This document shows positions 48,087 through 64,000 of a DNA stretch of 64,000 nucleotides, piece after piece. Numbering within the stretch: position 1 is the first letter of the stretch; each line of letters starts with the position of its first letter. The translations under genes and the position numbers were made by a program. Source of the stretch: Thermodesulfobacteriota bacterium. GTDB taxonomy: Bacteria; Desulfobacterota; Desulfobacteria; Desulfobacterales; C00003060. The stretch covers positions 288,001 to 352,000 of the forward strand of contig JAXHVD010000001.1 of NCBI GenBank assembly GCA_034189385.1, read 5' to 3'. Under the pieces are notes generated by a model. It was not told where the DNA came from, ran no database searches, and saw nothing but the letters and a program-made list of their open reading frames with translations.

Positions 48087-50908
48087 CCACTAAAGAGAAG
48101 ACCTGCATCACCTTGTTTGTAACCCTTATGGTGTGCATCACCTTTTCTCCACCGACCCATGGGGGCCAAATATGTAAGGTCATTGCCCCCAAACGCCTAG
48201 CCAAGCTGCATTACTTTCCGGTGAACGTCGTCGTCCAATTGAGCCAGGAAGCAAAACCAGAGACCTTCACGGCGTCGCTAAATGGAAAGGACATGACAGG
48301 CAAGTTTTCAGAAATGGAAAAGGGCTTGAGTGCCCTTGTGGGGCCAGAGGATGGGTTAAAAATCGATGTGAGAACAGGAGCCCATCGTAAGATCAACTTA
48401 TTGAAAATCGGGGTCAAGGCAATAGAACCAGGACAAGACGTGAGCATTGAGACCTTCTTTTTTGTTGAAATAGACAGACTGATGACCGTGGGGCCTGAAG
48501 GTGGCATCATTGAAAGCCTAGACGGAAATGTTTGCATAGACATTCCCAAGGGCACGCTCTCTTCTTCCGCAATCATAGGGGTTGCCAAAGTCCCTGGTTT
48601 GGCCCAGGTTGGAGAGGCTTATCAACTGCTACCAGTGGGGGCTAGTTTCAACGAGCCTCTTACCGTTACTATGACATACACTCCCGCCGCTTTGCCTCGA
48701 GGTGTAACAGAAGAAGACCTGTTCCTCATTCAAGGGGAGGCATTCCCAAGGAAACTGGAGAACATCAGGGTAGACAAGACGGCCCACACGGTAAGTGGGA
48801 CCACTATGTCTTTTGCCAAGGTAACTCTTTCCCATTACATTGGAATAGGGAAAACATTGGAGGACATTCCCCGTGCCAAGGATTTTAGACTTCCCATAGG
48901 AGATGATTCTGATGCACCCTATTCCTGTGGGCATGATTACCAGGCGCCCTCTAAAAAAGACCTTGGAGAGACTTTGAGCCTGTTGCATCGCTCATCGTAT
49001 CCCAATCTTGATTATCCTAAGATCACATTCAATAGAGACGGAGCGGCGAACCAGTGGCAGGTTACGACAGCCTATGGCCGGACTAGGTCTGTCAACTCTC
49101 CATCGGGACCTACGAGGGACGCCAAGTCTCTTTATATGCAAGATGGGAAGATATTCAACAACGGTGAAGAGTGGATTGTCGGCGAGAGCAAAGATAGGAG
49201 TGAAAGGCTTTCTGTGCACGCCATGGCAGACGGCCTTGTCATGTTTAGTGGCCAGGGTTACGGAACCGCCATTGCCCTGGCACACCGGATACCTGCCGGT
49301 CCTATTTTGTCAATATACTCTCACCGGGGTGACAAGTCCCCCTGTGCTGTGGGAACCATGGTGCGCAGGGGTAACGTCATAGGAAAAGCGCCCGGTATTG
49401 GAACCCCGAGATCCTTTCTTCACTTTGCAATTGCAAAGGGATCGATCATTGAGGTGGATTCTGAAACCGGGGAGCTCAAGGTCCCAGCTACCTGGTACGT
49501 GGACTGGCAAGAGGATTCAGTATATGAGAAATACTATGACCCCACGAATTTTTTGCTCAACATAACGGGAAAATATCAATGGGGTTTTGATGTTGACGGC
49601 AACATGGATGGCTGGATCGTGGAAAGCTCTGAAAACGACAATGGAAGATATCCCACACAGGTAAAAGACGGACTGCTTTCTCTTAGATCAAGAGTAAGCA
49701 GTTTTCAGTTAGAGAGTTATCCGCTGAAGATAGAGGCTGAGCGTTTTGACTCCATTTTCATAAGGATGAGAAGTGACGCTTCTTCCGGGCACGGGGTGGT
49801 TTATTTTGCAACGGATGAAGAGTCTGAGTGGTCGGAAAAGAGAGCAGTGACTTTAGGGATAGTCCACGATGGCGAGTTTCACCAATACAGAGCTTTCATG
49901 GGAGATAATCCCCGGTGGAAAGGAGAGATTGCGGGAATTCGCTTGGTTTTTCTGGATATGCCCATTGGGGAAACAACAGAGACGGATTTCGATTACATCA
50001 GATTGGGAAGGGCCTATTTGTCGCGAACACCGGATACAGGACAGGCCAAGTGTTATGATGATATACAAGAGACCACGTGCCCTGCACCGCATGCGCCTTT
50101 CTACGGACAGGACGCTCATTACACCGTCAACGCACCAAGCTACGAGATCAAGCGTGTTGATGAGCATGAGGTCGTGATAGATCATGTCACAGGTCTCACA
50201 TGGCAACGGCACGACGACGGCATGAAGCGGACTTGGCGACAAGCTGTAGACTACTGCGAGAATCTCTCCCTGGGTGGATATGCCGACTGGCGGCTTCCTA
50301 CGAAGAAGGAATTGCAGAGTCTACTAAACTATCGCTTTTTCCGTCCGGCTTTGGACACAGCCTATTTTGCTTACTCTCACATGCCTGATGATTGTTACTG
50401 GTCAGCGACTACCCGGGTTTTTCTCTCGGTCTCTGCCTGGAAGCTCTCTTTCTGGGAAGGTCAGGCCGCCATCAGTGGTGAGAACGATCTCAACTATGTT
50501 CGGGCAGTACGTGGCAGAGCGTTAGAATTTGGCCACTTTGTCGACAATGGAGATGGCACCGTGACTGATACGAGCAGTGGCCTTATGTGGCAGCAAACGG
50601 AGACAAAGGCCATGAGATGGAAAAAGGCATTGGCCTACTGTGAAGACACTGAGCTTGGAGGATACCAAGATTGGAGACTGCCGAATATCCGAGAACTATT
50701 GAGCCTGGTGGATGAAAACGTTGACGCACCCGCTATCAACGCAGGGTTCTTTCCTGGCTGTCGGCCCCGTACCTACTGGTCAAGCACCACCCATACAGGG
50801 TTTCCAGGCTATGCCTGGGGTGTGCCTTTTGAGGGCGGGGCTCAGTCCCTTCGAGCGTCCCAGAAAGGACGCGCCAACTATGTGCGTGCTGTGAGGGGTG
50901 GGAATTGA
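48074..50908 (+). CDS. Secreted multidomain protein: ZU5-like, degenerate M23 peptidase-like, CBM-like, two DUF1566 (Lcl C-terminal) domains
   Basis: VGPEGG....DG...IDIP; AMADG.V...YSH...V.RG.VIG...LHFAI; two VTGL.WQ...W..A..YC....GGY.DWRLP...EL...YWS.T...YVRAVRG units. Confidence 0.75.
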   Translation: MSGMTTKEKTCITLFVTLMVCITFSPPTHGGQICKVIAPKRLAKLHYFPVNVVVQLSQEAKPETFTASLNGKDMTGKFSEMEKGLSALVGPEDGLKIDVRTGAHRKINLLKIGVKAIEPGQDVSIETFFFVEIDRLMTVGPEGGIIESLDGNVCIDIPKGTLSSSAIIGVAKVPGLAQVGEAYQLLPVGASFNEPLTVTMTYTPAALPRGVTEEDLFLIQGEAFPRKLENIRVDKTAHTVSGTTMSFAKVTLSHYIGIGKTLEDIPRAKDFRLPIGDDSDAPYSCGHDYQAPSKKDLGETLSLLHRSSYPNLDYPKITFNRDGAANQWQVTTAYGRTRSVNSPSGPTRDAKSLYMQDGKIFNNGEEWIVGESKDRSERLSVHAMADGLVMFSGQGYGTAIALAHRIPAGPILSIYSHRGDKSPCAVGTMVRRGNVIGKAPGIGTPRSFLHFAIAKGSIIEVDSETGELKVPATWYVDWQEDSVYEKYYDPTNFLLNITGKYQWGFDVDGNMDGWIVESSENDNGRYPTQVKDGLLSLRSRVSSFQLESYPLKIEAERFDSIFIRMRSDASSGHGVVYFATDEESEWSEKRAVTLGIVHDGEFHQYRAFMGDNPRWKGEIAGIRLVFLDMPIGETTETDFDYIRLGRAYLSRTPDTGQAKCYDDIQETTCPAPHAPFYGQDAHYTVNAPSYEIKRVDEHEVVIDHVTGLTWQRHDDGMKRTWRQAVDYCENLSLGGYADWRLPTKKELQSLLNYRFFRPALDTAYFAYSHMPDDCYWSATTRVFLSVSAWKLSFWEGQAAISGENDLNYVRAVRGRALEFGHFVDNGDGTVTDTSSGLMWQQTETKAMRWKKALAYCEDTELGGYQDWRLPNIRELLSLVDENVDAPAINAGFFPGCRPRTYWSSTTHTGFPGYAWGVPFEGGAQSLRASQKGRANYVRAVRGGN

Positions 50909-50941: not shown

Positions 50942-53900
50942 CTATTCAGGATAGTGATATCCTAAATCTACTATTCCAGCATCGCCCACCCTATCTGTCC
51001 TGGTGGTCTTGACATCCAGACCAAGTTCTGCAGCCGTTTTACTCCCTGCGTTTACACAGGGACTATTGGCATCTTGCCCGGCAGCCCGCTGGCTCAGAAA
51101 ATAGTCGCCATTCTTTTCCGATGCAACAGCGGCAAACAAGGGATCTTTAGAAAAATCTTTGTCTCCAGCGACACAGCCGGCATATTCCTTGTCATTATTC
51201 CAAACGTTGTTGTGGTCGATGATCATGGTCGCTCCGGGTGCTGGGAATAACTCCGTCCCAGTATAGTTGGCAATTCCCGCCACCTTGTTGTTGGTAACAA
51301 TGTTATCTTCCACGATGGCATCAAAATCCCCAGAGTAAGGCCAGCCAAAGATCAACCCTCCGCCTCTATCCTGCTTATCGTCGCGGTGATTGTTCGAGTC
51401 AATAGTATTGTTTGAGATGATGATCTTGCTAAGATTAAAGGACGTGACGCTGATCCCACCTTGGTGGTTGTTAATGATGAGATTGTTGTTGATGATGATG
51501 TCCTCTCCAGCAAACCTTCGTATGGTAGCCATGGGGCTGATCACAATGCCAAAAACGTTGTCAAAGATGTGGTTCCCGTCAACACGTGGAGAAGCCACTT
51601 CCCGTGCCCCGATTCCGATTCTATTTCCGTAGATATAGTTTTCCTTGATTCGAGGTGCTGCAAGTCCCCTGCAACCTACACCAACGACGCGGTTGTTGTA
51701 AATATGGTTATTGAAGATATGGGCCGTGCTCCCCCTTCCGTTGCCAATGCCTATCATGTTCTCGTAGATCTCATTATTGTATATCTTTGTCTTGCCGCTC
51801 AGTATTTCCCTGCCATGGACCCCTATGGCATTGTGGTGATTGCGAGTAATCTTGTTGTTTGAAATAGTAGGCGAAGAATCCCATGCATTGATGCCGTGCC
51901 CCATGGGTCCCTTCCCGCCTCCTGTGATGATAAACCCTTCTATTTTACCGGCCCTATCACCAAGGTAGGGCACCATAATGGTGTTTACGTTTCCTTCTTG
52001 GCTTCCTCCGTCTATGGTGGGCCATCCTATGCCTATCAAGTTCACATTCTTGTCCATCACGATGGTTTCTTGGTAAATGCCTTTCTGGACCAGGATGTCG
52101 TCGCCTGGGTTCGCAGCATCCACTGCCGATTGCATGGTAGGATACTCCTCTGGGACCCGTCTTTTGCCGTCAACTGCGTTGTGTTTCGTGCTGACATAAG
52201 CGGTGTCAGGACTGCTGTCTGTCTTCCCGTCACTTACGACCAGCTTCAACTCGTAGCAGCCCAATGCATCTACCGAAAGCGTGGGGCTCACGGCATTGGG
52301 ATCTGAGAGGGCGGCCTGGCTTCCAGAAGGCCTAAAAGTGAGTTGCCACTTGTAACTGAGAGCATCACCGTCGGGGTCCTTACTGCCGCCTCCAAAGAGG
52401 GTCACCACATCACCCACATAGACGTTAGATATGAATTCTCCAGCATTGGCTGTCGGGGGGTGATTGCCCAGAGTACCAATTCTGACGGTGTGGGGATCAC
52501 CGGATGCGCCCCACCTGTCTTTTACTGTGAGTTGCACGACGTAGTCGCCCTGGACATCCACTGTAAAGGCTGGGTTCGCCGTTTTAGGATCAGAAAGCTT
52601 CGCCTGGCTTGTTAGCGGTCGGGAGATGAACGCCCATCGATAGGATATGGCATCTCCATTGGGATCTGCGCTATGGCTGCCATCGAGGATGACGTTATCG
52701 CCTACATATACGCTTTGTGCCGGACCGGCGTGGGCTTGGGGAGGATCATTCGGCCCTTTTTCTTCAGGCATGGCAAACGGTCCGCCATAGGCCCCCATAT
52801 CATTTACTGACGAGCCTAAAGAAGCAGGGAAGTGCACATCGTCAAACTCTGGACTGGGATCTCCCCTATCAATGGCCGGGGAGGCCGGTCGCAAATGATA
52901 GTCATGATGTGTCGCATCCACATACAGTGGATCGGCAATGATGTCGTTGTGTTTTAAGAAGCTCTTCTCGTCTTCAAACCCCCCATATTGGCGCCGAATG
53001 CACCAAAGGTAATGGGGGGCACAGTTGCCCGTTCTGTTATTAGAAAAGAGCAAGTTATAGGAATATCCCTCTCCGGAAGCCCGGATTCCAGCATCCTCAT
53101 TATGGGTAATGATATTATTCTTTATGTCAGGCACAGCAGAGGGATCCTCCACCACAATGCCCGACCGACCATTGGCCACCACCGTATTGTTGATCACGTC
53201 AAGGGGCGTAATGACGCACCTGATGCCGGCCGACTTGTTCTCATAGAGAATGTTGTTGGATATGGTCCCTGTGGCCGCCTTGGCCTCAATACCCGCTAGG
53301 GAGTTGTTGTGTATGATGTTGTTTAGGACCTCAAATGTAGAGGTCACCATTCCCCCAGTGGCAATTCCGGCCATTCCATTTTCCCTGATGGTATTGCCTT
53401 TGATCTTCAGTGAGCACCCGTTTTCCAGGTAGATCCCCGCCTCTTCATTCTTTCTGATGAGATTATGGGCTATGATGGCAGAACTGCCGCCACAGTAGAT
53501 GCCTGCAGGGGCATTTGCCTCTATGATATTGTTCCTTATGGTAGGAGACGTTGACTTGCAGTACACGCCTGCGCCTGAGCTAACTGTGGCCCCCGCGCCT
53601 TCAACGCGGGTGCCATTTACGATGGTAAAGCCGTCCAATGTGGCATCGTCAGCGCCATATACGACCCATCCGCCCTTTTTTCTCCCATCTATGGTCGATA
53701 TATATATGGATGTGTCTCGTTGCGAAAAATTGTCATTCCAACCCCCTTCTAACGTCACGCCCTTCTTCAACGTGATGTTCTCATAATACGTTCCCTGAGA
53801 GACCTGGACCGTGTCCCCCTTTGCCGCCGCATCCAAGGCTTCCTGAATGGTCCCATAGCCTTCTGGGACACGGATAGTGGCGGCCCAACACCGTTTTTCA

Positions 53901-53977
53901 AGGCCCAGTCCAGCTATCCATACTAAAACACCTGCCATGATGACTGAAGGCAGATAACATTTTCTCACGGTTTTCAT
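50942..53977 (-). CDS. Secreted protein: beta-helix, two PKD-like domains, second beta-helix
   Basis: RVPEGYGTIQEA and RVPEEYPTMQSA starts; PP.A.AG...LDGS.S.DP.GD...Y.W units; start at ATG 53977 after a GGAGG RBS. Confidence 0.85.
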   Translation of the reverse strand: MKTVRKCYLPSVIMAGVLVWIAGLGLEKRCWAATIRVPEGYGTIQEALDAAAKGDTVQVSQGTYYENITLKKGVTLEGGWNDNFSQRDTSIYISTIDGRKKGGWVVYGADDATLDGFTIVNGTRVEGAGATVSSGAGVYCKSTSPTIRNNIIEANAPAGIYCGGSSAIIAHNLIRKNEEAGIYLENGCSLKIKGNTIRENGMAGIATGGMVTSTFEVLNNIIHNNSLAGIEAKAATGTISNNILYENKSAGIRCVITPLDVINNTVVANGRSGIVVEDPSAVPDIKNNIITHNEDAGIRASGEGYSYNLLFSNNRTGNCAPHYLWCIRRQYGGFEDEKSFLKHNDIIADPLYVDATHHDYHLRPASPAIDRGDPSPEFDDVHFPASLGSSVNDMGAYGGPFAMPEEKGPNDPPQAHAGPAQSVYVGDNVILDGSHSADPNGDAISYRWAFISRPLTSQAKLSDPKTANPAFTVDVQGDYVVQLTVKDRWGASGDPHTVRIGTLGNHPPTANAGEFISNVYVGDVVTLFGGGSKDPDGDALSYKWQLTFRPSGSQAALSDPNAVSPTLSVDALGCYELKLVVSDGKTDSSPDTAYVSTKHNAVDGKRRVPEEYPTMQSAVDAANPGDDILVQKGIYQETIVMDKNVNLIGIGWPTIDGGSQEGNVNTIMVPYLGDRAGKIEGFIITGGGKGPMGHGINAWDSSPTISNNKITRNHHNAIGVHGREILSGKTKIYNNEIYENMIGIGNGRGSTAHIFNNHIYNNRVVGVGCRGLAAPRIKENYIYGNRIGIGAREVASPRVDGNHIFDNVFGIVISPMATIRRFAGEDIIINNNLIINNHQGGISVTSFNLSKIIISNNTIDSNNHRDDKQDRGGGLIFGWPYSGDFDAIVEDNIVTNNKVAGIANYTGTELFPAPGATMIIDHNNVWNNDKEYAGCVAGDKDFSKDPLFAAVASEKNGDYFLSQRAAGQDANSPCVNAGSKTAAELGLDVKTTRTDRVGDAGIVDLGYHYPE

Positions 53978-53984
53978 TACGCTT

Positions 53985-55058
53985 TTACCCTCCTGAATAT
54001 GCTTTGGGTCCGCCGTATGCACCCATATCGTTCTTTGATCCGTCCGGATCATGATAGATCGGGTCAGGATTGCCAGTGTCTCTGCATGGGGACGCTGGCC
54101 TCAAGCGAAAATCGCCGTCCTTTGGGTTTACAAAGAGTGGATCAGCAGAGATATTCCCATTCAGGCCCCTGAAGCTACCGTCGCCTATGTCTGAATGATC
54201 GGGTCTGGAGGAAGGATTAAACAGCCCTGAATAGAGGTCATCCTCATTGTTCCACAGAATCGTATTGATAATCCTCACAGAGCCTTTGTCAAAGAACAGC
54301 CCCCCTCCATGAGAGGCGGAATTCGCCGTAATCGTATTATTGATGATCGTACAGGCCGACCGGTCACAAGAAATTCCACCACCTGATTTTCCCTGGTTTT
54401 CCCATATGCAGTTGTTAGTGATGCGGGGAGACCCCTTGTAGCAAAAGATGCCACCGCCGGCATTAGATGCCTCATTTCCTACTATCTTGTTGTTGCTGAT
54501 GTTCGGTGAGGCCCTGTACGAGGCAATGCCTCCTCCAAACCTAGTAGCCTTGTTTCTCGATATAACATTGTTCGTGATGATGGGAGAAGAGTAAGGAGCA
54601 CAATGGACCCCACCGCCAACGACTGCGCCATTTTCGGTAATGATGTTGTTCGTGATGGTGGGAGAGGATGAAGGAGCACAATAGACCCCCCCACCTTCAA
54701 GGCTTTGGGTAGCCTTATCGTCCATGGTCTTGATGGTAAATCCATCGATAACGGAGTGAGAGTTTTCTACAAAGGTGATCACAGGACTGTTTCCCATTCC
54801 TTCAATGACGGTTTTTCGGGGTCCATGTGCACTTTTCAAGATGATGGACTCTTTGCTGATCGTGATGTTCCCAGAGTAGAGCCGGTGTGTGCCTGACGCC
54901 ACTATAATGGTGTCGCCAGGTTGAGCGGCGTGGATAGCCTCTTGCATCGTCAAGTACTCATGGGGAACCCGAAGGGTGTTGGGCGAGGCATCGGTGGCAA
55001 CCACCAACATGGAGACGATGGCCCACAGTGCCGTTTTAAACAAAGTCACCTTTTCCAC
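53985..55058 (-). CDS. Secreted right-handed beta-helix repeat protein
   Basis: RVPHEY.TMQEAI; GGGI.C..SSP.I.NN repeats; NDMGAYGGP. Confidence 0.85.
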   Translation of the reverse strand: MEKVTLFKTALWAIVSMLVVATDASPNTLRVPHEYLTMQEAIHAAQPGDTIIVASGTHRLYSGNITISKESIILKSAHGPRKTVIEGMGNSPVITFVENSHSVIDGFTIKTMDDKATQSLEGGGVYCAPSSSPTITNNIITENGAVVGGGVHCAPYSSPIITNNVISRNKATRFGGGIASYRASPNISNNKIVGNEASNAGGGIFCYKGSPRITNNCIWENQGKSGGGISCDRSACTIINNTITANSASHGGGLFFDKGSVRIINTILWNNEDDLYSGLFNPSSRPDHSDIGDGSFRGLNGNISADPLFVNPKDGDFRLRPASPCRDTGNPDPIYHDPDGSKNDMGAYGGPKAYSGG

Positions 55059-56218
55059 CCAACGAAATCCACGCCCGCCGTGAGATTGTCATAAATATGA
55101 TTGCGCCTCATCATAGAGGCAGGGACATTTAACAGCCTTATTCCGGCAGTCAAATTGCCATGGATCTCATTATCCTCAATGATCGCTTCGTCCACGTTAA
55201 ACAGGGATATGCCGGCCAGTGCGTTATCAAAAATCGTGTTGAACATGATCTCAACCTTGTCTATCTTGGATGATAGAATGCCAGCCTTCAGGTTCCCGTA
55301 TATCTTGTTATTCTCAATAACCGCCCTGATATTGGTCTCTGCGCCACCGAGGCCCCTTAGACCAATACCGCCCCTTCTGTTATTGCATAGGATATTGTTC
55401 CGAATAATTAATGCCTGGTCCCGGGAATCCAGATTGATACCGCCAATGCCGGCGTCATTTCTGGTACATAGGTTGTTCTCAATGATCGGGCGGGCATATT
55501 CTCTGATCCCAATACCCGGTGCCCCCGGATCTTTATCCGTGGCCCCGGGAAACCGATTGTCAAATATCTCATTATCGGCAATAAGGGCAGCAGAATTCGG
55601 CCCATTGGAGATTCCAGGGCCATGATTATCGTAAATGACATTGTTTCGAATAAGGGGGCTGGCCACTGTCTCAAGGGGTGGGCCCATCCCTATCCCCAAA
55701 CCAGTGGATATCATGCCGCCCCAGCTGCGATTTTTTGCCACGATGTTGTTCACCACTTCAGGGGAACAACCTCGAATCTCGACTAAAAAGAGGTTGATGC
55801 CGGAGCGGTACTTGGGCATATTCACGATAGTGAATCCATCCAACCTCATGGGGGCCGTCGTGTCCTTGGGAAAGCTAATCAAATAGCCAGGGGCCTCGAT
55901 GCCGGTGCCGTCAATGATGGTCCTGGCTGTCCTTTTGAGTATCTTCTTCTCTCCGGGGCCATCCACTAGGTCATTACCGTCGGTGCCTGCAAAGCTCACC
56001 AAGCTCACCCCTTCCGTGATCTCGATGCGCTCGTTGTATGTGCCCGCTTTCACATAGACCGTGTCCCCAAAGCGGGCTGCGTTCATGGCTTCTCCAATGG
56101 TGGCGTAATCTTCTGGTACGAAGATCTCCCCAGCCCAGGCTCCATGGGTACTCCAGACTGTCAGAACCAGAAACAAAAAGCCCGTTTTGAGGTGCACAAT
56201 CAACCGATTTCTTTCCAT
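55046..56218 (-). CDS. Secreted right-handed beta-helix repeat protein
   Basis: Signal peptide after ATG 56218 (or 56224); IFVPEDYATI.EA; I.NN.I..N..AGI repeats. Confidence 0.8.
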   Translation of the reverse strand: MERNRLIVHLKTGFLFLVLTVWSTHGAWAGEIFVPEDYATIGEAMNAARFGDTVYVKAGTYNERIEITEGVSLVSFAGTDGNDLVDGPGEKKILKRTARTIIDGTGIEAPGYLISFPKDTTAPMRLDGFTIVNMPKYRSGINLFLVEIRGCSPEVVNNIVAKNRSWGGMISTGLGIGMGPPLETVASPLIRNNVIYDNHGPGISNGPNSAALIADNEIFDNRFPGATDKDPGAPGIGIREYARPIIENNLCTRNDAGIGGINLDSRDQALIIRNNILCNNRRGGIGLRGLGGAETNIRAVIENNKIYGNLKAGILSSKIDKVEIMFNTIFDNALAGISLFNVDEAIIEDNEIHGNLTAGIRLLNVPASMMRRNHIYDNLTAGVDFVGWKR

Positions 56219-56470
56219 AATCATTAGTTTTTGATAGTAACATACTTTCAGGGGTTGCGGCAAACACATTCTAGTAGCCATGGCCGTTTGCTCCCATGTC
56301 CAGCCCCCATTTGCGGAACATCCAGGCGTAGGACTGCCAGAGGCTTTTTTGCTCAAATTTCCACGCCAATTGAATAAAATAAGGCTCTCGTATAGCGATG
56401 TCAAAAGTCTTCGCCCATGGGAGTGAGGCCTTTTTGGCACAACTCCTTCTCACGTGACTCTGGAAGCTCT

Positions 56471-56546
56471 TTGATCCACCAGGGCGGACCGCTTAGTTCG
56501 ACGGAGTGGGGAATGGGTAGCCCCAAAAACCCAACGTGGGCGTTCG
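56471..56546 (+). repeat. Dispersed hairpin repeat, copy D
   Basis: ttgatccaccagggcggaccgcttagttcgacggagtggggaatgggtagccccaaaa matches the reverse complement of copy A. Confidence 0.7.
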
Positions 56547-56641
56547 GGCGCTTTAGGCAAGGCTCTCGGCGGGACGGTTGCCCTTTTTCTTGGCAGGAGG
56601 CGTGAAGAGGTCTCTTTACAGGTGTCAGGCGAGTTCCCGTC

Positions 56642-56677
56642 TAGCCCCTTGACAGGAAGGGGCTAACCTTGTATTCT
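56642..56677 (+). promoter_or_regulatory. Sigma70 promoter (TTGACA-17-TATTCT) overlapped by a 9-bp inverted repeat
   Basis: TTGACA 56649-56654, TATTCT 56672-56677; TAGCCCCTT/AAGGGGCTA straddles the -35. Confidence 0.65.
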
Positions 56678-56689
56678 TACGTCAAATTG

Positions 56690-56815
56690 AGCGGCTGAAG
56701 CCGCTTTTGTTCAGGGGCTGTCTAGGGGAAGAGTCCAACATACCGGAACGGTTCAATCGTGCTACGAAGGCACAGTGTCACGAGGAGGTGACGTGTTTCG
56801 TAGCTTTTTTGTTGA
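56690..56815 (+). promoter_or_regulatory. Structured 5' leader / attenuator, copy 1
   Basis: GCGGC-TGAA-GCCGC hairpin, CCAACA, small hairpin, AATCG, GCTACGAA...TTCGTAGC stem + T6. Confidence 0.6.
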
Positions 56816-56827
56816 GAGGAGAGAGTA

Positions 56828-57502
56828 TTGGCTGAGGAAGTGGGGTACAGAGAGGTCCTTATTGCCCCCCTTGAGGCCCGCCGCGAGGCCATAGGCTTGC
56901 TAGGGGTCATCGTCCTGATTGCCCTGCTCATGGCTTTGCGCTTCTCCCTGCTTACCGGGACAACACCACAACAGGGCTTGAAGGCCTATCAGCGGCCCGA
57001 CACTGTATTGACTGGCCAGCAGCCGCTTCTCTATCGAACCCTTTTGAGTGTTGTGGACGAGGTAGTGGACTTGCGCGATCAGGAGGGGGAGTGGCCGGCT
57101 GTAAAGGTCTTGGAAAGGGAACATATCCCCCCCTTTGACAAGAGCTTTTTGCCAGTGGCACTCAAGAGCTACGTCTGGTCCCGTCACGAGGGGAACTCCT
57201 GGGTGGACTACTTCGGTGAGAATCCCAAGCGGGCCGACGCGGATGCTGTTGCCCACGAACCCACCAGCTTCTTGTTGCGAATCATTGATCTTCACACGGA
57301 AAATCACCCCCATCCCCACCCTGGTATCGATTACGACCCGAATATGCGATTTGCAGCCCAGGTCTGGACGTATCCGGCCAAACGCCCTTATCCTGGGGAA
57401 CGCGTGGTGGAATTCGGCTGGAAATGGATCGTGGGCCCAAGTGACCGTTCCTTATGGGCAAATCAGGAGATATCTGAAGCCCCTGGCGCCAAGAAGCCAT
57501 AA
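56828..57502 (+). CDS. DUF6162-like (FpvK-like) membrane-anchored protein
   Basis: One N-terminal TM helix, WP....L....IPPF, QVW motifs, HPHPHP insert; first gene of the ABC operon. Confidence 0.55.
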   Translation: MAEEVGYREVLIAPLEARREAIGLLGVIVLIALLMALRFSLLTGTTPQQGLKAYQRPDTVLTGQQPLLYRTLLSVVDEVVDLRDQEGEWPAVKVLEREHIPPFDKSFLPVALKSYVWSRHEGNSWVDYFGENPKRADADAVAHEPTSFLLRIIDLHTENHPHPHPGIDYDPNMRFAAQVWTYPAKRPYPGERVVEFGWKWIVGPSDRSLWANQEISEAPGAKKP

Positions 57503-57540
57503 GGATTTTAGGGAAAGCTATGAGTCAACGGAGGTGACGA

Positions 57541-58467
57541 ATGAATAGAAGAATTCTCTCAGTGCTACCATTAGTGCCCTTTCTGGTGGCCCTGGCGTTT
57601 CATGTCCATTCTGGAGAAGAAAAAAAGCTGAATGTTGGAGTGACATTGCATCCCTATTACTCCTGGGCGAGCAACATTGTTGGTGACACGGCCGACGTCA
57701 CGCCCATTATTCCCACGGATGCGGACCCCCATTCTTATCAGCCAAGGACACAGGACCTGGCTAATCTCAGAAATCTTGATGTTATTGTCATCAACGATGT
57801 AGGCCATGACGAATACATCAGACCCATGCTAAAGAGTGCAAGGCGTGAGGATCTGCACACCATCAATACCAGCATCGGTCTCCCATTGATTCCTATCTTC
57901 CAACAGACGTACGCCTTTGAAGGAGAGGCGGCCTCGGCTGTTGCATACAACAGCCACACGTACATTGCCATCACGGGAGCCATTCAGCAGATCAACACCA
58001 TTGCCCGGGAATTGAGCAAGCTTCGCCCCGGCTATGCTGACCTTTACAAGAAAAATGCCCGTGCATACGCTAAACGTTTGAGGCGGATGCTGGCGGCGGC
58101 CTTGGAAAAGGTCAACGCCCTTGATACAAGCAAGGTGAGAATAGCCACGGTTCACGACGGCTACGCCTACCTTATGCAGGAACTGGGGCTGGAGGTTGCG
58201 GCGGTCATTCAGCCCCGGCATGGCATCGAGCCCAATCCGCGTCAGTTGCAGGACACCATCAACCGGATCAAAGGGGCGGGCGTAAACGTTCTTTTCACCG
58301 AACTCGACTACCAGAAGCGATACGTGGACATCATCTATGAGGAGACGGGCTGTCGGATCTATCGTCTGTCTCATATCTCCCACGGCCCGTATACGGCGGA
58401 CAAATTCGAGCGGGATATTCAGGGAAACCTGGATGACATCATAAAAGCGCTGACCGATGCAAAATGA
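57541..58467 (+). CDS. Cluster A-I metal ABC substrate-binding protein (FpvC/ZnuA-like)
   Basis: GVTLHPYYS, DPHSYQP, GHDE, NSHTY, HDGYAY, HGIEP, SHISHGPY. Confidence 0.88.
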   Translation: MNRRILSVLPLVPFLVALAFHVHSGEEKKLNVGVTLHPYYSWASNIVGDTADVTPIIPTDADPHSYQPRTQDLANLRNLDVIVINDVGHDEYIRPMLKSARREDLHTINTSIGLPLIPIFQQTYAFEGEAASAVAYNSHTYIAITGAIQQINTIARELSKLRPGYADLYKKNARAYAKRLRRMLAAALEKVNALDTSKVRIATVHDGYAYLMQELGLEVAAVIQPRHGIEPNPRQLQDTINRIKGAGVNVLFTELDYQKRYVDIIYEETGCRIYRLSHISHGPYTADKFERDIQGNLDDIIKALTDAK

Positions 58468-59233
58468 GACACCCAAACAACAAGGGGCTGGCGCCACGGT
58501 AGCGCGGCCTCTTCTTGAGGTAAAGGGGCTCTCTGTCTCCTTAGGGGGGGATCAGATCTTAGATGACGTTAATCTGGAGGTCGCCTCGGGCAGCATTCAT
58601 GCCCTCATTGGGCCCAATGGCGCCGGGAAAACCACGTTAATCCGGAGCCTTATGGGTGGCATGCCCCACCGGGGGACGATTCGCTTCCGTTTTCGCAAAA
58701 GCGGGCGTATCGGTTATGTACCCCAATTGTTGGAATTTGATCATTCCGTGCCCATCACTGTGGGCGATTTCATTACCATCATGCTGCAAGATTCTCCGGT
58801 CTTCATCACTGGTATTAAGAAAATGCGACCGCAAGTGCAGCAGATATTGGCAGCCACAGAAAGCGACCATTTGCTCGATCGGTTGATAGGCGGGTTGTCG
58901 GGTGGAGAGATTCGACGGGTCCTTCTGGCCCAGGCCCTTGCACCCTTGCCGGAGTTGCTCCTCTTGGACGAACCGGCCAGTAACGTGGATGAACAGGGTG
59001 CCTTGCTCTTTGAGGAGATCTTGTTGCGGCTTAAGGAGGAGCATGGTCTCACCATCCTGATGGTAGGGCACGACACGCGCATGATCCTGCGCCTTGCTGA
59101 TATGGTAACCAGTGTCAACTGCAGAGTTACTTTTAGCGGGCCCCCGACAGAATTAGAGGATGAGGAAAGAATGGCTGGATTGTACAAGGCATCGTCTTCG
59201 CCTACTGCAACGAGATCAGGAGGGCCCCATTAG
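58457..59233 (+). CDS. Metal ABC transporter ATPase (FpvD/ZnuC-like)
   Basis: GPNGAGKTT, GYVPQ, LSGGE, LLLDEP. Confidence 0.92.
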   Translation: MQNETPKQQGAGATVARPLLEVKGLSVSLGGDQILDDVNLEVASGSIHALIGPNGAGKTTLIRSLMGGMPHRGTIRFRFRKSGRIGYVPQLLEFDHSVPITVGDFITIMLQDSPVFITGIKKMRPQVQQILAATESDHLLDRLIGGLSGGEIRRVLLAQALAPLPELLLLDEPASNVDEQGALLFEEILLRLKEEHGLTILMVGHDTRMILRLADMVTSVNCRVTFSGPPTELEDEERMAGLYKASSSPTATRSGGPH

Positions 59234-60126
59234 TGGATTGGTTGTACGAGATCATCAGTGGCTGGGCTAAAGCCGGCTATTTGCCTGGTATTTTCGAGCA
59301 CACCTTCATGATCCGCGGCATGCTGGCCGCCATGATTATTGGCCCTGTTCTTGGAGGGTTAGGTACGGTGGTCGTGACAAAGAAGCTTTCCTTCTTTACC
59401 CAGACCATTGGCAATGCCTCGCTCACCGGTGTGGCCCTGGGACTGCTTCTCGGCGAACCAGTGGAAGGGACTTACGCTGGGCTGTACGGCTTCTGCCTAG
59501 CGGTGGCGTTGGTAATGACCTTTGTCAAGAACCGGAGCCGCCTTTCCAATGACACGGTCATTGGTGTGGTGCTGGCCCAGGTGTTGGGTATCGGCATTAT
59601 CATGCTCTTGCTGGTGACCAGCCAGTTTAATATCCACCAGGTGGAGGGGATTCTTTTTGGAAGCCTCATTACGCTCACGGATGGCGACCTCATCACCCTG
59701 GTTTTTTCGTCCCTCGTGGTAGCTGCAGTCTTTTGCATCACCTTTAACCGCACTATATTGGTAGCCTTTAATCCCGTTCTGGCCAATGCCCGTGGTCGGA
59801 ATCCGGTCTTGTTGGAATATGTTTTTATTACGCTCATGACCACTGTGGTCGTGGCCAGCCTCAAGCTCATCGGTGCCTTGCTGGTCTTGGTCTTGATCGT
59901 GGTGCCGGCGGCTGGCGCGCAAAACATCGTGGGGAACTTGCGCCAGTTTTTGTGGGTAAGCATCGCCTTGTCCACTATCAGCACGGTGTCGGGATTATTC
60001 CTCTCAGCCCTGGTGCCTGTGCCTAGCGGTGCGGTCATTGTCCTTACTTCCAGCATATTGTTTTACGCGACCTTGGTGATGAGGCCGTTGTTTGGCCGGA
60101 GTGCCGTCAGGCAGGGAGATGGATAA
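59233..60126 (+). CDS. Metal ABC transporter permease (FpvE/ZnuB-like)
   Basis: GWA..GYLP, GPVLGGLGT.VV, LFGS, IGALLV..L..VPA. Confidence 0.9.
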   Translation: MDWLYEIISGWAKAGYLPGIFEHTFMIRGMLAAMIIGPVLGGLGTVVVTKKLSFFTQTIGNASLTGVALGLLLGEPVEGTYAGLYGFCLAVALVMTFVKNRSRLSNDTVIGVVLAQVLGIGIIMLLLVTSQFNIHQVEGILFGSLITLTDGDLITLVFSSLVVAAVFCITFNRTILVAFNPVLANARGRNPVLLEYVFITLMTTVVVASLKLIGALLVLVLIVVPAAGAQNIVGNLRQFLWVSIALSTISTVSGLFLSALVPVPSGAVIVLTSSILFYATLVMRPLFGRSAVRQGDG

Positions 60127-60214
60127 GACCTGTGGCGGCCTTTCAGGACGCGCAGCATTGGACAGCGAGAATGATATGAAATAGGGATTACTAGGATAAT
60201 TAGGAGGTTATATC

Positions 60215-60625
60215 ATGAGGTGCAAAGTGAGACGATGGATCCATGATGGCAACAGGTGGGTTACTACTTTTGGCATCGGTTTGATGATGGTGGCCTCTGC
60301 AGCCCTTGCCTATGCCCATGCCGCTGTATTGTGGGCTTACGTGGAGAACAACCACGTCTATGTGGAGGCCTTCTTCATGGGCGGTGACAAGATCAAGAAC
60401 GGGCGTCTCATCGTAGTGGACTCAAACGGGAAGAAGCTACTGGAGGGAAAAACCGATGAAGAAGGAAAATTCGATTTTGCCCCTCCAGCGATGGACGATA
60501 TGACCATTCTCTTGAGACTTGACAAGGCCCACGGCTCCGAGTTCACCATAAAAAAAGAGGATTTTCAGCAAGACCAGGAGTGCCCAGAACAACCAGCCAA
60601 GTCGCCAGCCAAGCCCCCCAAGTAG
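60215..60625 (+). CDS. Periplasmic CbiL/NikL-like accessory protein
   Basis: AYA-H signal cleavage leaving an N-terminal His; LLEGKTDEEG.F.F motif; paralog of 63637-64000. Confidence 0.6.
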   Translation: MRCKVRRWIHDGNRWVTTFGIGLMMVASAALAYAHAAVLWAYVENNHVYVEAFFMGGDKIKNGRLIVVDSNGKKLLEGKTDEEGKFDFAPPAMDDMTILLRLDKAHGSEFTIKKEDFQQDQECPEQPAKSPAKPPK

Positions 60626-60761
60626 AGGGTGGTTGATTCTTGTGCCAGTGAGAAGGGACGTCTCGTTGCCTACCCAACTGTTACTGGGTCACACCGCAGA
60701 GAGATGGGTCTCTTTTCTGTTGACACCGGGGTCGGGTTTTGTGTTAGGTAGGAGGCTACAA

Positions 60762-60878
60762 TGGGGGCTGAAGCTCCTGATCGCTGGTCAAGGAACCCCA
60801 ACAATTCACATGAAAATCGAGCCATGAAGGTTTCAGGTCTGCAGAAGGGACCGATGTTCGTGGCTTTTTTTGTTGGGG
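60762..60878 (+). promoter_or_regulatory. Structured 5' leader / attenuator, copy 2
   Basis: GGGGC-TGAA-GCTCC hairpin, CCCCAACA, small hairpin, AATCG, GCCATGAA...TTCGTGGC stem + T7; TTGACA at 60720. Confidence 0.6.
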
Positions 60879-60899
60879 AGCATCTTAAGAGAGGAGGTA

Positions 60900-61673
60900 A
60901 TGATGAAGAGAGAAATGATGAGTTGTTTTCTGGTGGTGATTGCCCTCATGATGGCAGTTCCGGCCCTTGCCCATTACGGCATGGTTATTCCTTCGGATCA
61001 AATGGTCATGCAGGGAGAAGAGAGGGAAGTGGAATTGAATCTTCTGTTCTGGCACCCTTTTGAGGGCCACGGCATGGAATTGGTCAAACCGGCCGCCTTT
61101 GGCGTCGTTGCCAATGGCGAGAAGCAAGATCTGCTGGGTGCTTTAGAGTCTACGAAGACAAAGGGGCATCAGACTTGGGCCGCCACTTACAAGATCAAGC
61201 GGCCTGGGGTGTATGTTTTCTATATGGAACCGCAGCCTTACTGGGAGCCGGCGGAGGACTGTTTCATCGTCCATTACACAAAGGCTGTGGTAACCGCCTT
61301 TGGGGATGACGAAGGATGGGACGAGGAGATTGGCCTGAAGACAGAGATCGTTCCCCTTTCCAAACCTTATGGCCTGTATGCCGGCAATGTGTTTCAGGGG
61401 ATTGTGAAGCTGGATGGCAAGCCTGTGCCCTATTCTGAGGTGGAGGTGGAGTATTATAATGAGGATGGCAAGTGCCATGCCCCCACTGATTACATGGTGA
61501 CCCAGACCGTCAAGGCCGATGCCAACGGTGTCTTCACCTATGCCGCGCCCACGGCCGGCTGGTGGGGTTTTGCCGCTCTAAACACCTCAGATGCCAAAAA
61601 GAAACACGATGGCGAGGAGAAAGACATAGAGCTGGGGGCGGTCCTTTGGGTCCAGTTTCACGACATGAAATAG
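60900..61673 (+). CDS. DUF4198 periplasmic Ni/Co-uptake-associated protein
   Basis: [48 protein letters not shown] before ATG 60900. Confidence 0.85.
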
Positions 61674-61749
61674 TAACTAAGGGCTTTACCCGGTGTCAGA
61701 AGACACGGGAGATCTATAAAACAGGAGGAAGGTTAAAAGGAGGAAAGAG

Positions 61750-62844
61750 ATGAAGAAACCGGTTTGGAGGCTCGTTGGGGTGCTTTGTGTTTTGGGACTA
61801 TTTGCCGTTGTCAACAGTGGCCACGCCATGCAGGAGCATGTGGGAGAAGTGCTTTCCGACATCCACTTTAGTGGCTTGATCGAAGTGGGTGGAGCCTGGC
61901 AGGATTTTGACTATGATGAGGGCGGTAGTGATGACGCCAGTGATCTTTGTCTGACGACGTTGGAACTGGAGGCGGAGGCAGAGATAAACGAGTGGGTCAG
62001 TGTGGCTGCATTGCTCTTGTATGAAGACGCCACTTCTTTTGAGGGAGAAAACGATGAAACAGATGTAGACATAGAAGAGGCCACGGTGACCATTGGCAAT
62101 CCTGACGAATATCCTTATTACCTCACTGCGGGCAAGATGGTTGTCCCCTTTGGGGCGCTGTTTACACACTTCCCAGATGATCCTCTCATGGATGTGCCTG
62201 TAACCCTGGTAATGGGGGAGACGATTGAGAAGGCTGTCCTGGTGGGCGCAACGTGTCCATTAGGGTTTACGCTGTCCGGTTATGTGTTCAGCGGAGATGT
62301 GGATGAGGACGAAGACAACAATGTAGAGAGTTATGGCTTGGACGTGAACTATGCCATGGAGGATGAAGAGGGTCTGGATCTGTTGATCGGCGCCTCTTAC
62401 ATATCCAACATCGCGGACTCAGACGTTATCGAGGAGACCCTCGAACACCATGGCGTGGAGGAGATCGAGGATTACGTGGATGGCTTTGATCTCTATTTTC
62501 TCGCCGACTGGGCCGGTTTCTTTCTGGGTGCTGAGTACATGACCGCCCTGGATGATTTTGACCACGACGAGTTGCATACAGCCGGCGGTGATGGCGCTGA
62601 GCCAGAGGTATGGAACATCGAGGCCGGCTATAATCTGGAATGGGGCAGGAATCTAGAAATCGCCTTGAAGTACGCTGGTTCTGATGAAGCGGAGGGTTTG
62701 GATATTCCTGAGGACCGATATGGGCTTTGTCTGAACCAAGAGATTTGGGAGGGCGTTGTGGGCTCCGTCGCATACCTTCATGATGAATATGAGAATGATG
62801 ATGAGAGGGACGTGCTGTACGGACAGATCGCAGTAGAATTCTAG
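61750..62844 (+). CDS. LbtU-family (siderophore/metal) outer-membrane porin
   Basis: SGLIEV, L.T.EL, LLYE, AGK..VPFG, YISNIADSD, P..WN.E, C-terminal VEF; highly acidic. Confidence 0.8.
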   Translation: MKKPVWRLVGVLCVLGLFAVVNSGHAMQEHVGEVLSDIHFSGLIEVGGAWQDFDYDEGGSDDASDLCLTTLELEAEAEINEWVSVAALLLYEDATSFEGENDETDVDIEEATVTIGNPDEYPYYLTAGKMVVPFGALFTHFPDDPLMDVPVTLVMGETIEKAVLVGATCPLGFTLSGYVFSGDVDEDEDNNVESYGLDVNYAMEDEEGLDLLIGASYISNIADSDVIEETLEHHGVEEIEDYVDGFDLYFLADWAGFFLGAEYMTALDDFDHDELHTAGGDGAEPEVWNIEAGYNLEWGRNLEIALKYAGSDEAEGLDIPEDRYGLCLNQEIWEGVVGSVAYLHDEYENDDERDVLYGQIAVEF

Positions 62845-62896
62845 TAGAACAGAAGGCAGATTGTCCAAAGTGTGAAGGACAACTCCCAGTGGTGCT

Positions 62897-62940
62897 GCCC
62901 CCACCTGCGCTTTTTTCATCAGAGAGCGCAGGGTGGGGGC
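62897..62940. terminator. Strong GC-rich hairpin between the porin gene and cbiM
   Basis: GCCCCCACCTGCGCT ... AGCGCAGGGTGGGGGC; no clear downstream T-run. Confidence 0.45.
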
Positions 62941-63032
62941 AAGGCGCTTAAAGAGGGAGGAAATGTCCGTTACATCAGGGTTCTTTCCAAATCATCCAGC
63001 GCGGTGATTGCAGGAGAGGGAGTCATCCCAGC

Positions 63033-63659
63033 ATGCATATTTCAGAGGGTGTGCTATCACCAACTGTTCTCATTGCAGGTGCAGCGCTTACAACAGCAGG
63101 TGTTGCTGCGGGGCTTAGGAAACTGGATAACAGGGAGATTCCTTCTACAGGGATACTGTCGGCTGCTTTCTTTGTAGCTTCGCTCGTTCATGTGCCTATC
63201 GGACCTGCTTCCGTCCACCTGGTCATGAACGGCTTACTCGGGCTCATCTTGGGGTGGAAGGCCTTTCCTGCGATCTTGGTAGGCTTGGGCCTTCAGACCC
63301 TCCTTTTTCAGTATGGCGGCCTTACCAGTCTTGGTGTGAATACCCTGAACATGGCCCTTCCAGCGGTCATATGTTACTACGTGTTTGGCTGGGCCGTGAG
63401 AACCCGAACCAGCATCTTCGTGTTCACCGGCATGGCCTTCGGGTGTGCTTTTTGTGCTGTCCTCATCAGTGGTATCATGGTCGGGTTTTCCCTGTACTTG
63501 ACAGGAGAAGCCTTCTTGCCTGCAGCAAAGGTCGTGGTAGTAGCCCATCTCCCCATCATGGTCATTGAAGGGATTTTAACGGCAGCCTGTGCCCTCTTTT
63601 TGAGGAGAGTAAAACCTGAATTATTGGAGGGACTCTATGTGCCAGAGCCCATTTCGTGA
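63033..63659 (+). CDS. cbiM: CbiM/NikM ECF-type Co/Ni transporter substrate component
   Basis: N-terminal MHISEG metal-binding motif, SVHL, GG.TSLGVN, EG..T. Confidence 0.92.
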   Translation: MHISEGVLSPTVLIAGAALTTAGVAAGLRKLDNREIPSTGILSAAFFVASLVHVPIGPASVHLVMNGLLGLILGWKAFPAILVGLGLQTLLFQYGGLTSLGVNTLNMALPAVICYYVFGWAVRTRTSIFVFTGMAFGCAFCAVLISGIMVGFSLYLTGEAFLPAAKVVVVAHLPIMVIEGILTAACALFLRRVKPELLEGLYVPEPIS

Positions 63660-64000
63660 GTCTAACCGGACCTGTTGCAGAGAGGTGGTTGTTTGTTTCC
63701 TCTTGGTAGTCCTGGGGCTTGGTTTTGGCGTTTTTCCCGCGTGGGCCCATAAGGTTACTATCTTTGCCTGGGTAGAGGGAGACACGGTCTACACGCAGAG
63801 CAAGTTCAGCGGCGGCAAGAAAGTCAAAAGGGGCACAATCGTGGTCTACGACAAGGAAGGAAATCAGCTTCTGGAGGGCAAGACCGATGATAAGGGTGCG
63901 TTCTCGTTTAAGGTGCCCAAGAAGACGACCCTCAAGATTGCGTTGAAGGCCTCCATGGGCCACTTTGCGGAGTGGACTATCCCTGAGAAGGAAATTGCGG
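63637..64000 (+). CDS. CbiL/NikL-like accessory protein (runs off the window end)
   Basis: Open frame MCQSPF...PAWA-HKVTIFAWVEGDTVYTQSKFSGG...LLEGKTDDKG.FSF...MGH; absent from the ORF track because it has no stop in the window. Confidence 0.8.
   Translation, partial: MCQSPFRESNRTCCREVVVCFLLVVLGLGFGVFPAWAHKVTIFAWVEGDTVYTQSKFSGGKKVKRGTIVVYDKEGNQLLEGKTDDKGAFSFKVPKKTTLKIALKASMGHFAEWTIPEKEIA

Follow-up and report, generated by a model that had tools for sequence, protein, structure and literature searches.

Two leader RNAs before metal-uptake operons of a Desulfobacterales bacterium belong to a widespread family of putative cis-regulatory terminators absent from Rfam

Why do two neighbouring metal-uptake operons begin with the same structured leader, and what might such a leader sense? 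The question is raised by a 64,000-nucleotide stretch of contig JAXHVD010000001.1 (positions 288,001 to 352,000, assembly GCA_034189385.1) from a Thermodesulfobacteriota bacterium of the Desulfobacterales, hereafter the window. An initial annotation, made from the letters of this DNA, had pointed to the same ordered elements at 56690-56815 (leader A) and 60762-60878 (leader B), each before metal-transport genes, and had suggested a cis-acting RNA that controls termination in response to nickel, cobalt, zinc or a metal cofactor. Judged by comparative sequence analysis, the two leaders are members of a widespread RNA family absent from Rfam 15, and, irrespective of what does the sensing, this family very probably acts as a conserved cis-regulatory leader for genes of nickel/cobalt uptake. 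The suggestion of a cis-acting RNA is supported; regulated termination and the metal signal stand as candidates.

An exact-word search for AAUCGNGCYRYGAAGG across the genus gave 11 matches, eight of them leaders (including the two window copies) and three unrelated places that were rejected on inspection; four one-mismatch places from an exact-word search of the own genome were also rejected as leaders. The covariance model R1, built from those eight leader sequences, detected the element at E ≤ 0.01 in 34 of the 37 genus genomes, one of which carries as many as 7 copies. The model also found it in 85 of 151 genomes evenly drawn from the class, representing 50 of 77 genera, and in 24 of 151 genomes sampled from the phylum. 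In the own genome (4.13 Mb), R1 finds just the two window copies; a third match within the window, at 48319-48476 (18 bits), lies in coding sequence and was dismissed as chance. A scan with the exact core-hairpin pattern, taking one genome per species, returned at least 121 stretches. The matches listed belong mostly to Desulfobacterales and other 'delta proteobacteria' records, and also to Desulfobacca, Syntrophobacteraceae, Nitrospira, Thermodesulfovibrio, NC10, Clostridia, Lachnospiraceae, Oscillospiraceae, Ruminococcaceae and Spirochaetia. We fetched 80 of these loci and set 14 aside by eye, 13 of them in coding or unrelated DNA and one overlapping another locus.

Covariation, by which the initial annotation had proposed to judge its RNA, was found throughout the stem of P1, the 5' hairpin of the element: in 93 sequences aligned to R1, compensatory changes affect all six P1 pairs, each changed on both sides, and 95.9% of the cells are paired. 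One such pair, for example, occurs as GC in 26 sequences, CG in 24, AU in 16, UA in 8, UG in 8 and GU in 7. Sliding the partner by one to three columns lowers the pairing to 35-54%, and the G-U pairs are consistent with an RNA of the plus strand only. When the structure was scored in full, none of 500 shuffles did as well as the real alignment, a count whose significance is overstated because the aligned sequences are kin. When 74 P1 hairpins with tetraloops were aligned without gaps and anchored on the loop, 92.1% of positions were paired, as opposed to 58.0% after shuffling, with compensatory changes in all seven pairs. Two of the alignments have limits of their own: in A9 the inner four P1 pairs were imposed by the selection script, so that in it the outer pairs and the range of different pairs are what is informative, and A7 was fitted to the covariance model.

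What the family holds constant was read from 132 curated copies, namely those of 197 pattern matches in which a GAA-loop hairpin could be detected no more than 100 nt away. Their P1 loops are UGAA (39), AGAA (35) or CGAA (6), making 80 of the NGAA type, or the pentaloops AAGAA (9), AUGAA (9), ACGAA (5) and AGGAA (4), making 27 of the A-N-GAA type; the other 25 are different or doubtful. In P1 the letters of the stem are free, and the loop (A)NGAA with its C-G closing pair is fixed. The base of the terminator hairpin is nearly invariant in its letters (RCCAYGA/UCGUGGY), with few compensatory changes among the 93 sequences. Its 5' strand, which we call the shoulder, has the consensus RCCAYGAAGGY in 129 distinct copies and can fold alone as RCC-AYGAA-GGY because its letters 1 and 11 are able to pair in 128 of the 129 (GC 84, GU 36, AU 8). 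The resulting mini hairpin has the shape of the pentaloop versions of P1, for example CC-ACGAA-GG or CC-AUGAA-GG. A similar loop recurs at the tip of the terminator, where GAA is found in 77 of the 132 copies, AGAA being the commonest form (26) and C-G the most frequent closing pair. The linker between P1 and the terminator measures 0-100 nt (median 38.5) and is variable in sequence. Mutual information between the first letter of the P1 loop and 40 other positions revealed no partner of Watson-Crick type that might act as a receptor for the loop. Across many taxa the element lies between a TTGACA-type promoter-like site and the start codon of a metal-uptake operon, nearly always on the same strand and directly upstream of the gene, with the ribosome-binding site 15-40 nt past the U run.

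Several loci showed particular arrangements of the element. Two or three copies stand within a few hundred bases of each other, in tandem or before neighbouring genes, at L141, L146, L096, L061/L083 and L076, and in the Nitrospira record L096 a tRNA-Sec gene (2127-2219, 63 bits) lies beside two copies. At L095, L151, L093, L197 and L205 the core hairpin is a near-perfect palindrome flanked by A and U runs, so that either strand gives a match, as with a bidirectional terminator.

Rfam 15 does not contain this element. Scanning the whole window at the gathering scores gave no match, and a scan of 56400-61200 at E ≤ 10 gave chance-level matches only, the best overlap being TEG147 with 19.7 bits when 56.1 are needed; this sub-threshold match is confined to the terminator hairpin of leader B and is terminator-like. 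In 20 related loci from other taxa, searched at E ≤ 0.1, just tRNA-Sec and two chance miRNA matches appeared. The suspected novelty is favoured by these scans, and the view of the initial annotation that neither leader resembles a cobalamin or NiCo riboswitch agrees with them. The full-text literature, whose coverage leaves subscription papers and supplements outside, yielded no description of the motif and no paper that brings DUF4198 together with a riboswitch, and targeted look-ups in two recent surveys of new bacterial RNAs found none either (PMC11109978; PMC8632094).

The two window copies (Table 1) conform to this plan. All the ordered elements were found where the initial annotation had placed them, and profile searches of the open reading frames recovered the metal ABC (ATP-binding cassette) transporter, DUF4198, porin and CbiM genes that it had named. 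In leader A, P1 is separated from the terminator hairpin by a linker of 54 nt, and its shoulder GCUACGAAGGC could fold alone as GCU-ACGAA-GGC; a ribosome-binding site follows, and then a TTG start at 56828. Leader B is followed by GAGGAGG and an ATG at 60900. Both leaders have the form of an intrinsic terminator, a G+C-rich hairpin directly before U6 or U7; our simple terminator scanner, with its loop limit of 8, did not list them. Both leaders, which are paralogous with about 72-75% column identity, also contain GGAA, CCAACA, a small hairpin and AAUCG. These elements do not define the family: of 126 curated copies, 8 have AAUCG directly 5' of the stem, and the pairing of CAACA with GUUG proposed in the initial annotation was rejected as a family feature, both words occurring in 2 of the 126, the window's own two. 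Nor was linker-to-3'-flank pairing retained as a feature of the family, the longest helix averaging 5.94 bp against 5.72 bp with shuffled linkers. CAACA/GUUG and AAUCG are details that the two window copies share through kinship.

Table 1. Coordinates of the two leaders and their operons in the window.
Feature	Position	Strand	Basis or remark
Promoter-like site, leader A: TTGACA (56649-56654), 17 nt, TATTCT	56649..56677	+	promoter scan, 10/12 matches
Leader A, whole RNA element	56688..56826	+	R1, 97.8 bits, E 1.4e-20
P1 hairpin, leader A: GAGCGGC-UGAA-GCCGCUU	56689..56706	+	folding; 7-bp stem, UGAA loop, C-G closing pair
Terminator 5' shoulder, leader A: GCUACGAAGGC	56761..56771	+	conserved; family consensus RCCAYGAAGGY
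Terminator hairpin and U run, leader A	56761..56810 (hairpin 56761-56804)	+	folding, -21.0 kcal/mol
Inner (apical) hairpin, leader A	56777..56792	+	
Terminator 3' strand, leader A: UUCGUAGC	56797..56804	+	
U6 run, leader A, then GUUG	56805..56810	+	
Operon A	56828..60625	+	profile searches of open reading frames
orf224, first gene after leader A (224 aa)	56828..57502	+	start TTG; precedes ZnuA-type ABC system
ZnuA-type binding protein, operon A	57541..58467	+	
ABC ATPase, operon A	58457..59233	+	
ABC-3 permease, operon A	59233..60126	+	
NikL-family fragment, operon A	60215..60625	+	NF058648 at 5.2e-24, under curated cut-off
TTGACA (-35-like), leader B	60720..60725	+	poor -10, uncalled by promoter scan
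Leader B, whole RNA element	60761..60886	+	R1, 97.3 bits, E 2e-20
P1 hairpin, leader B: GGGGGC-UGAA-GCUCCU	60763..60778	+	folding
Terminator 5' shoulder, leader B: GCCAUGAAGGU	60821..60831	+	
Terminator hairpin and U run, leader B	60821..60871 (hairpin 60821-60864)	+	folding, -19.7 kcal/mol
Inner (apical) hairpin, leader B	60836..60852	+	GCAGAAG loop
Terminator 3' strand, leader B: UUCGUGGC	60857..60864	+	
U7 run, leader B, then GUUGGGG	60865..60871	+	
Operon B	60900..64000, continuing past window end	+	profile searches of open reading frames
DUF4198, operon B	60900..61673	+	
Porin, operon B	61750..62844	+	
CbiM, operon B	63033..63659	+	
227-aa protein after CbiM	starts 63637, runs beyond window end	+	

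The first gene of operon A, orf224, gave no match in Pfam or NCBIfam, and the CbiQ gene of operon B follows the 227-aa protein outside the window. An open frame of 100 aa (60761-61063) begins with an ATG just 5' of P1 in leader B, 5 nt past AGGAGG, and overlaps the DUF4198 gene in a different frame; it is probably not translated, because this AGGAGG sits where the -10 box and transcription start would be expected. Divergent from leader A, on the minus strand (50942-56440), lie three large adjacent genes with beta-helix, NosD and PKD domains (1036, 357 and 464 aa).

Which metal such a leader would serve was approached through the genes that follow it. We examined 64 loci among the matches listed in the wide scan, with 84 downstream proteins and NCBIfam as a supplement; two loci had been omitted, one identical in sequence to another and one with too little downstream DNA. 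Among these matches, the first gene after the element encodes CbiM at nine loci, DUF4198 (alone or fused to CbiM) at five, and a NikL-family protein followed by CbiQ at one; TonB-dependent receptors stand first at nine and TonB/ExbB/ExbD at four. NikA-like family-5 binding proteins, FecCD or Peripla_BP_2 proteins, S components of energy-coupling factor (ECF) transporters and DUF6802-containing proteins do so at three loci each, OprB or LbtU-type porins and FmdE at four each, DUF3842 at two, and class-I methyltransferases with a weak likeness to DVU_1556/CpaM at eight. LarE and then LarB, which synthesize the nickel-pincer cofactor, follow at two loci (L075, Ruminococcaceae, and L092, Oscillospiraceae). 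CbiO is also part of the gene set, and four loci (L072, L095, L123, L129) have unrelated genes or none called. The 70 proteins of the loci within the genus repeat this set and add operons of a methyltransferase, an amino-acid permease, a TP_methylase and a TonB receptor.

This last unit is found at L180, L182, L183, L186 and L176, with the element before its first or second gene, and its TP_methylase has a weak, sub-cut-off likeness to precorrin methylases; such a unit might serve as an uptake pathway of metallophore or corrinoid-related type. At L176/L177, on contig C17 of genome G032 (44000-76000), five to six copies of the element occur within about 20 kb, each before its own unit: a TonB receptor with DUF4198, a NikL-like protein and a TP_methylase; a methyltransferase; and a DUF6802/Lsa25.6-like protein with ExbB and TonB. 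Going by its gene content, this cluster looks like a dedicated metal-acquisition island.

CbiN reportedly marks cobalt systems, and extra components of the NikK/NikL type nickel systems, according to comparative work by Rodionov and colleagues. The protein after CbiM, of about 225 aa, has a sub-threshold Ig-like match and is not CbiN; the own genome, 90% complete, contains a single cbiM, the window's, and at this completeness gave no match to CbiN. For an ECF S component that follows the motif in Firmicutes, a look-up in the ESM Atlas returned generic ECF names only. We put the weight on nickel because of the NikL-type components, LarE-LarB and the NikA-like proteins; cobalt would come second, and zinc, for which the ZnuA-type operon A is the sole argument, would be weak. 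Thus, among the three metals of the initial annotation, the gene set argues for nickel and less so for cobalt, and zinc is the least supported.

The distribution of known regulators was then set beside that of the motif. The NikR C-terminal domain was found in one of the 37 genomes of the genus, G013 (98% complete), which is one of the three without the motif, the other two being 83% and 52% complete. In the class sample it was found in one of 151 genomes, G039, also motif-less, so NikR and the motif did not co-occur in any of the genomes searched. In G013, cbiM directly follows another gene without a spacer, and in G039 the upstream region is A+T-rich without a clear site. The own genome has five canonical cobalamin riboswitches of 75-115 bits on contigs C32, C34 and C56 (L171-L175), none of them in the window; they precede a TonB-dependent receptor, two pairs of a BtuF-type binding protein and an ABC ATPase, a DUF4465 protein and a protein without family. 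The new element is therefore not the organism's own B12 sensor, as five true cobalamin riboswitches lie elsewhere, before genes of B12-uptake type.

How might the leader work? The RNA starts a few bases 5' of P1, and we propose that the family gates transcription of nickel, possibly cobalt, uptake operons at the intrinsic terminator. As long as the nascent RNA lacks the 3' shoulder, P1, the mini hairpin of the shoulder and the hairpin at the tip could all form, and a sensor fold of these two or three like hairpins would exclude the base of the terminator. A ligand or protein that ties the like loops together would keep the shoulder out of the terminator and permit read-through; otherwise transcription would terminate. 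A signal of nickel status would shift the balance between sensor fold and terminator, towards read-through when the metal is scarce and termination when it is replete. If the RNA itself is the sensor, its ligand might be one of the ions Ni2+ and Co2+ or a small molecule that signals their status, and, the regulated genes being importers, the signal would in effect report scarcity, or else the metal would disrupt the sensor fold or shift the balance to the terminator. Of the forms that control could take, we hold a riboswitch that senses directly, with its aptamer embedded in the terminator, to be the most likely, at about even odds. We put forward somewhat more tentatively, as a possibility short of even, that the family represents a new class of riboswitch, the first in which an RNA sensor controls nickel (or cobalt) import rather than export, with a terminator-embedded aptamer of two to three (A)NGAA hairpins that replaces NikR in Desulfobacteria and scattered anaerobes. 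The support for a riboswitch is indirect: the element is conserved and covaries, it stands in a consistent gene context, and no regulator gene recurs beside it.

Besides the limits of the alignments given above, several observations weigh against direct sensing, and some of them would suit a protein equally well. The shoulder mini hairpin has just 3 bp, the next three pairs forming in 60%, 48% and 36% of the sequences. Folded singly, leaders A and B give the expected hairpins with ordinary energies (z = -1.70 each), and 11 of 200 and 15 of 200 shuffles, respectively, fold equally well. One metatranscriptome had 0.10 of the sampled words and is kept as contigs; none of these is on the leaders, six pieces being on coding parts of operon A and on one end, so that it counts neither for nor against. 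Control of LarE-LarB in common with importers is odd for a simple nickel-off logic. The distribution fits a replacement of NikR by the RNA in this lineage, a fit that rests on two genomes, and 66 of the 151 class genomes have neither motif nor NikR, which means that there are further regulators. With a median of -23.5 kcal/mol the terminator is strong, and 112 of the 132 copies include it in their minimum-energy fold; a search for an antiterminator helix found no excess of pairing between its 5' strand and upstream sequence (2.83 nt, as against 3.00 with shuffled linkers). With a strong terminator and no conserved antiterminator helix found, a switch turned off by replete metal needs an extra assumption; the same two facts suggest that read-through would depend on something that keeps the sensor fold actively in place. 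That something could be an RNA-binding antiterminator, for example a nickel-binding protein in its metal-free state, that grips the (A)NGAA hairpins of P1, shoulder and tip and blocks the terminator at scarcity, working like the ANTAR, LicT/RAT or lambda N/boxB systems. The conserved part of the element is small, about 25 letters, and is made up of like hairpin loops that repeat; an array of two or three such loops, variably spaced, is the kind of target that multimeric RNA-binding proteins use; a factor present at scarcity would also suit both the importers and LarE-LarB. Yet no candidate regulator gene recurs beside the element among the 84 and 70 downstream proteins, and the protein would have to be as widespread as the family, which spans several phyla. 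We therefore regard a protein sensor as possible but doubtful.

One such protein could be examined directly. ANTAR targets consist of two hairpins with hexaloops that have A at position 1 and G at position 4, the second hairpin overlapping a terminator. The loops here have 4-5 nt, and ANTAR gave no match in seven motif-bearing genomes of the genus that are 67-96% complete, two of which (96% and 93% complete) carry 4 copies of the element each, whereas it is present in all three motif-less genomes. An ANTAR-controlled leader is excluded by loop size and distribution, the overlap of hairpin and terminator being a likeness in form only. The terminated transcript of about 110 nt could alternatively be the product, a trans-acting small RNA made of a hairpin, an A-rich stretch and a terminator with its U tail, with read-through into the operon incidental; the strong default terminator would agree with this, as would the AAGAAG-type loops and U tail, which are reminiscent of Hfq-binding small RNAs. 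We consider it very unlikely, given that the element is nearly always on the same strand directly upstream of one functional class of genes, that the up to 7 copies per genome stand each before its own uptake gene, and that the variable linker leaves no conserved single-stranded seed region. Most improbable in our view is that these are ordinary promoter-proximal hairpins or terminators without sensing, inherited or duplicated with transporter genes. The paralogy of the window copies and the single-sequence folds, no better than shuffles, speak for it; but a terminator between a promoter and its own gene is useless unless regulated, and phyla agree in the letters of loop and shoulder, the P1 stem letters varying freely as long as they pair. 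Moreover, the downstream genes span different transporter families, and so the element did not simply travel with one gene.

Hydrogenases and CO dehydrogenase make nickel a requirement of sulfate reducers and other anaerobes. With NikR in 1 of 151 class genomes, regulation of nickel uptake needs another candidate, and the leader RNA is a testable one. If direct sensing proves true, it would add a metal-import riboswitch and a second terminator-hidden aptamer after HMP-PP, a type that standard searches tend to miss. The regulon also flags DUF4198, NikL-like proteins, FmdE, DVU_1556-type methyltransferases, the TP_methylase beside TonB receptors and DUF3842 as candidate parts of nickel/cobalt acquisition.

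Finally, we compared the element with the closest known systems. No Rfam model matched at the leaders, so that membership in the NiCo, HMP-PP, Guanidine-II or cobalamin (RF00174) families is rejected. The HMP-PP riboswitch (thiS motif) is an ON switch with its aptamer inside the terminator and a tip common to both states, and it resembles the new element in being very compact, with a short 5' hairpin, then a classic intrinsic terminator, and conserved letters in the terminator stem (PMC6478431). It differs in these letters and in that the 5' hairpin and shoulder share a loop motif here; the genes are for metal uptake, with no thiamin synthesis gene among the 84 and 70 downstream proteins. In other bacteria a cobalamin riboswitch is often found 5' of cbiM, btuB and TonB genes, but RF00174 (gathering score 31.5 bits) is about twice the size of our element. 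The NiCo riboswitch (czcD motif) is likewise an RNA tied to nickel/cobalt homeostasis; it forms a four-way junction and activates exporters when metal is abundant, whereas here two to three simple hairpins precede importers. Guanidine-II (mini-ykkC) has two hairpins with the same short loop (ACGR) and fixed closing pairs, joined by a variable linker, the second overlapping an expression signal. The new element shares this architecture of two small same-loop hairpins, but its loops are (A)NGAA or AYGAA, and genes and terminator platform differ. In its targets it is closest to the NikR regulon, which comprises the same kinds of genes (NikM/CbiM-type and NikA-type importers and TonB systems), NikR being a DNA-binding protein where here we find an RNA hairpin with a covarying stem.

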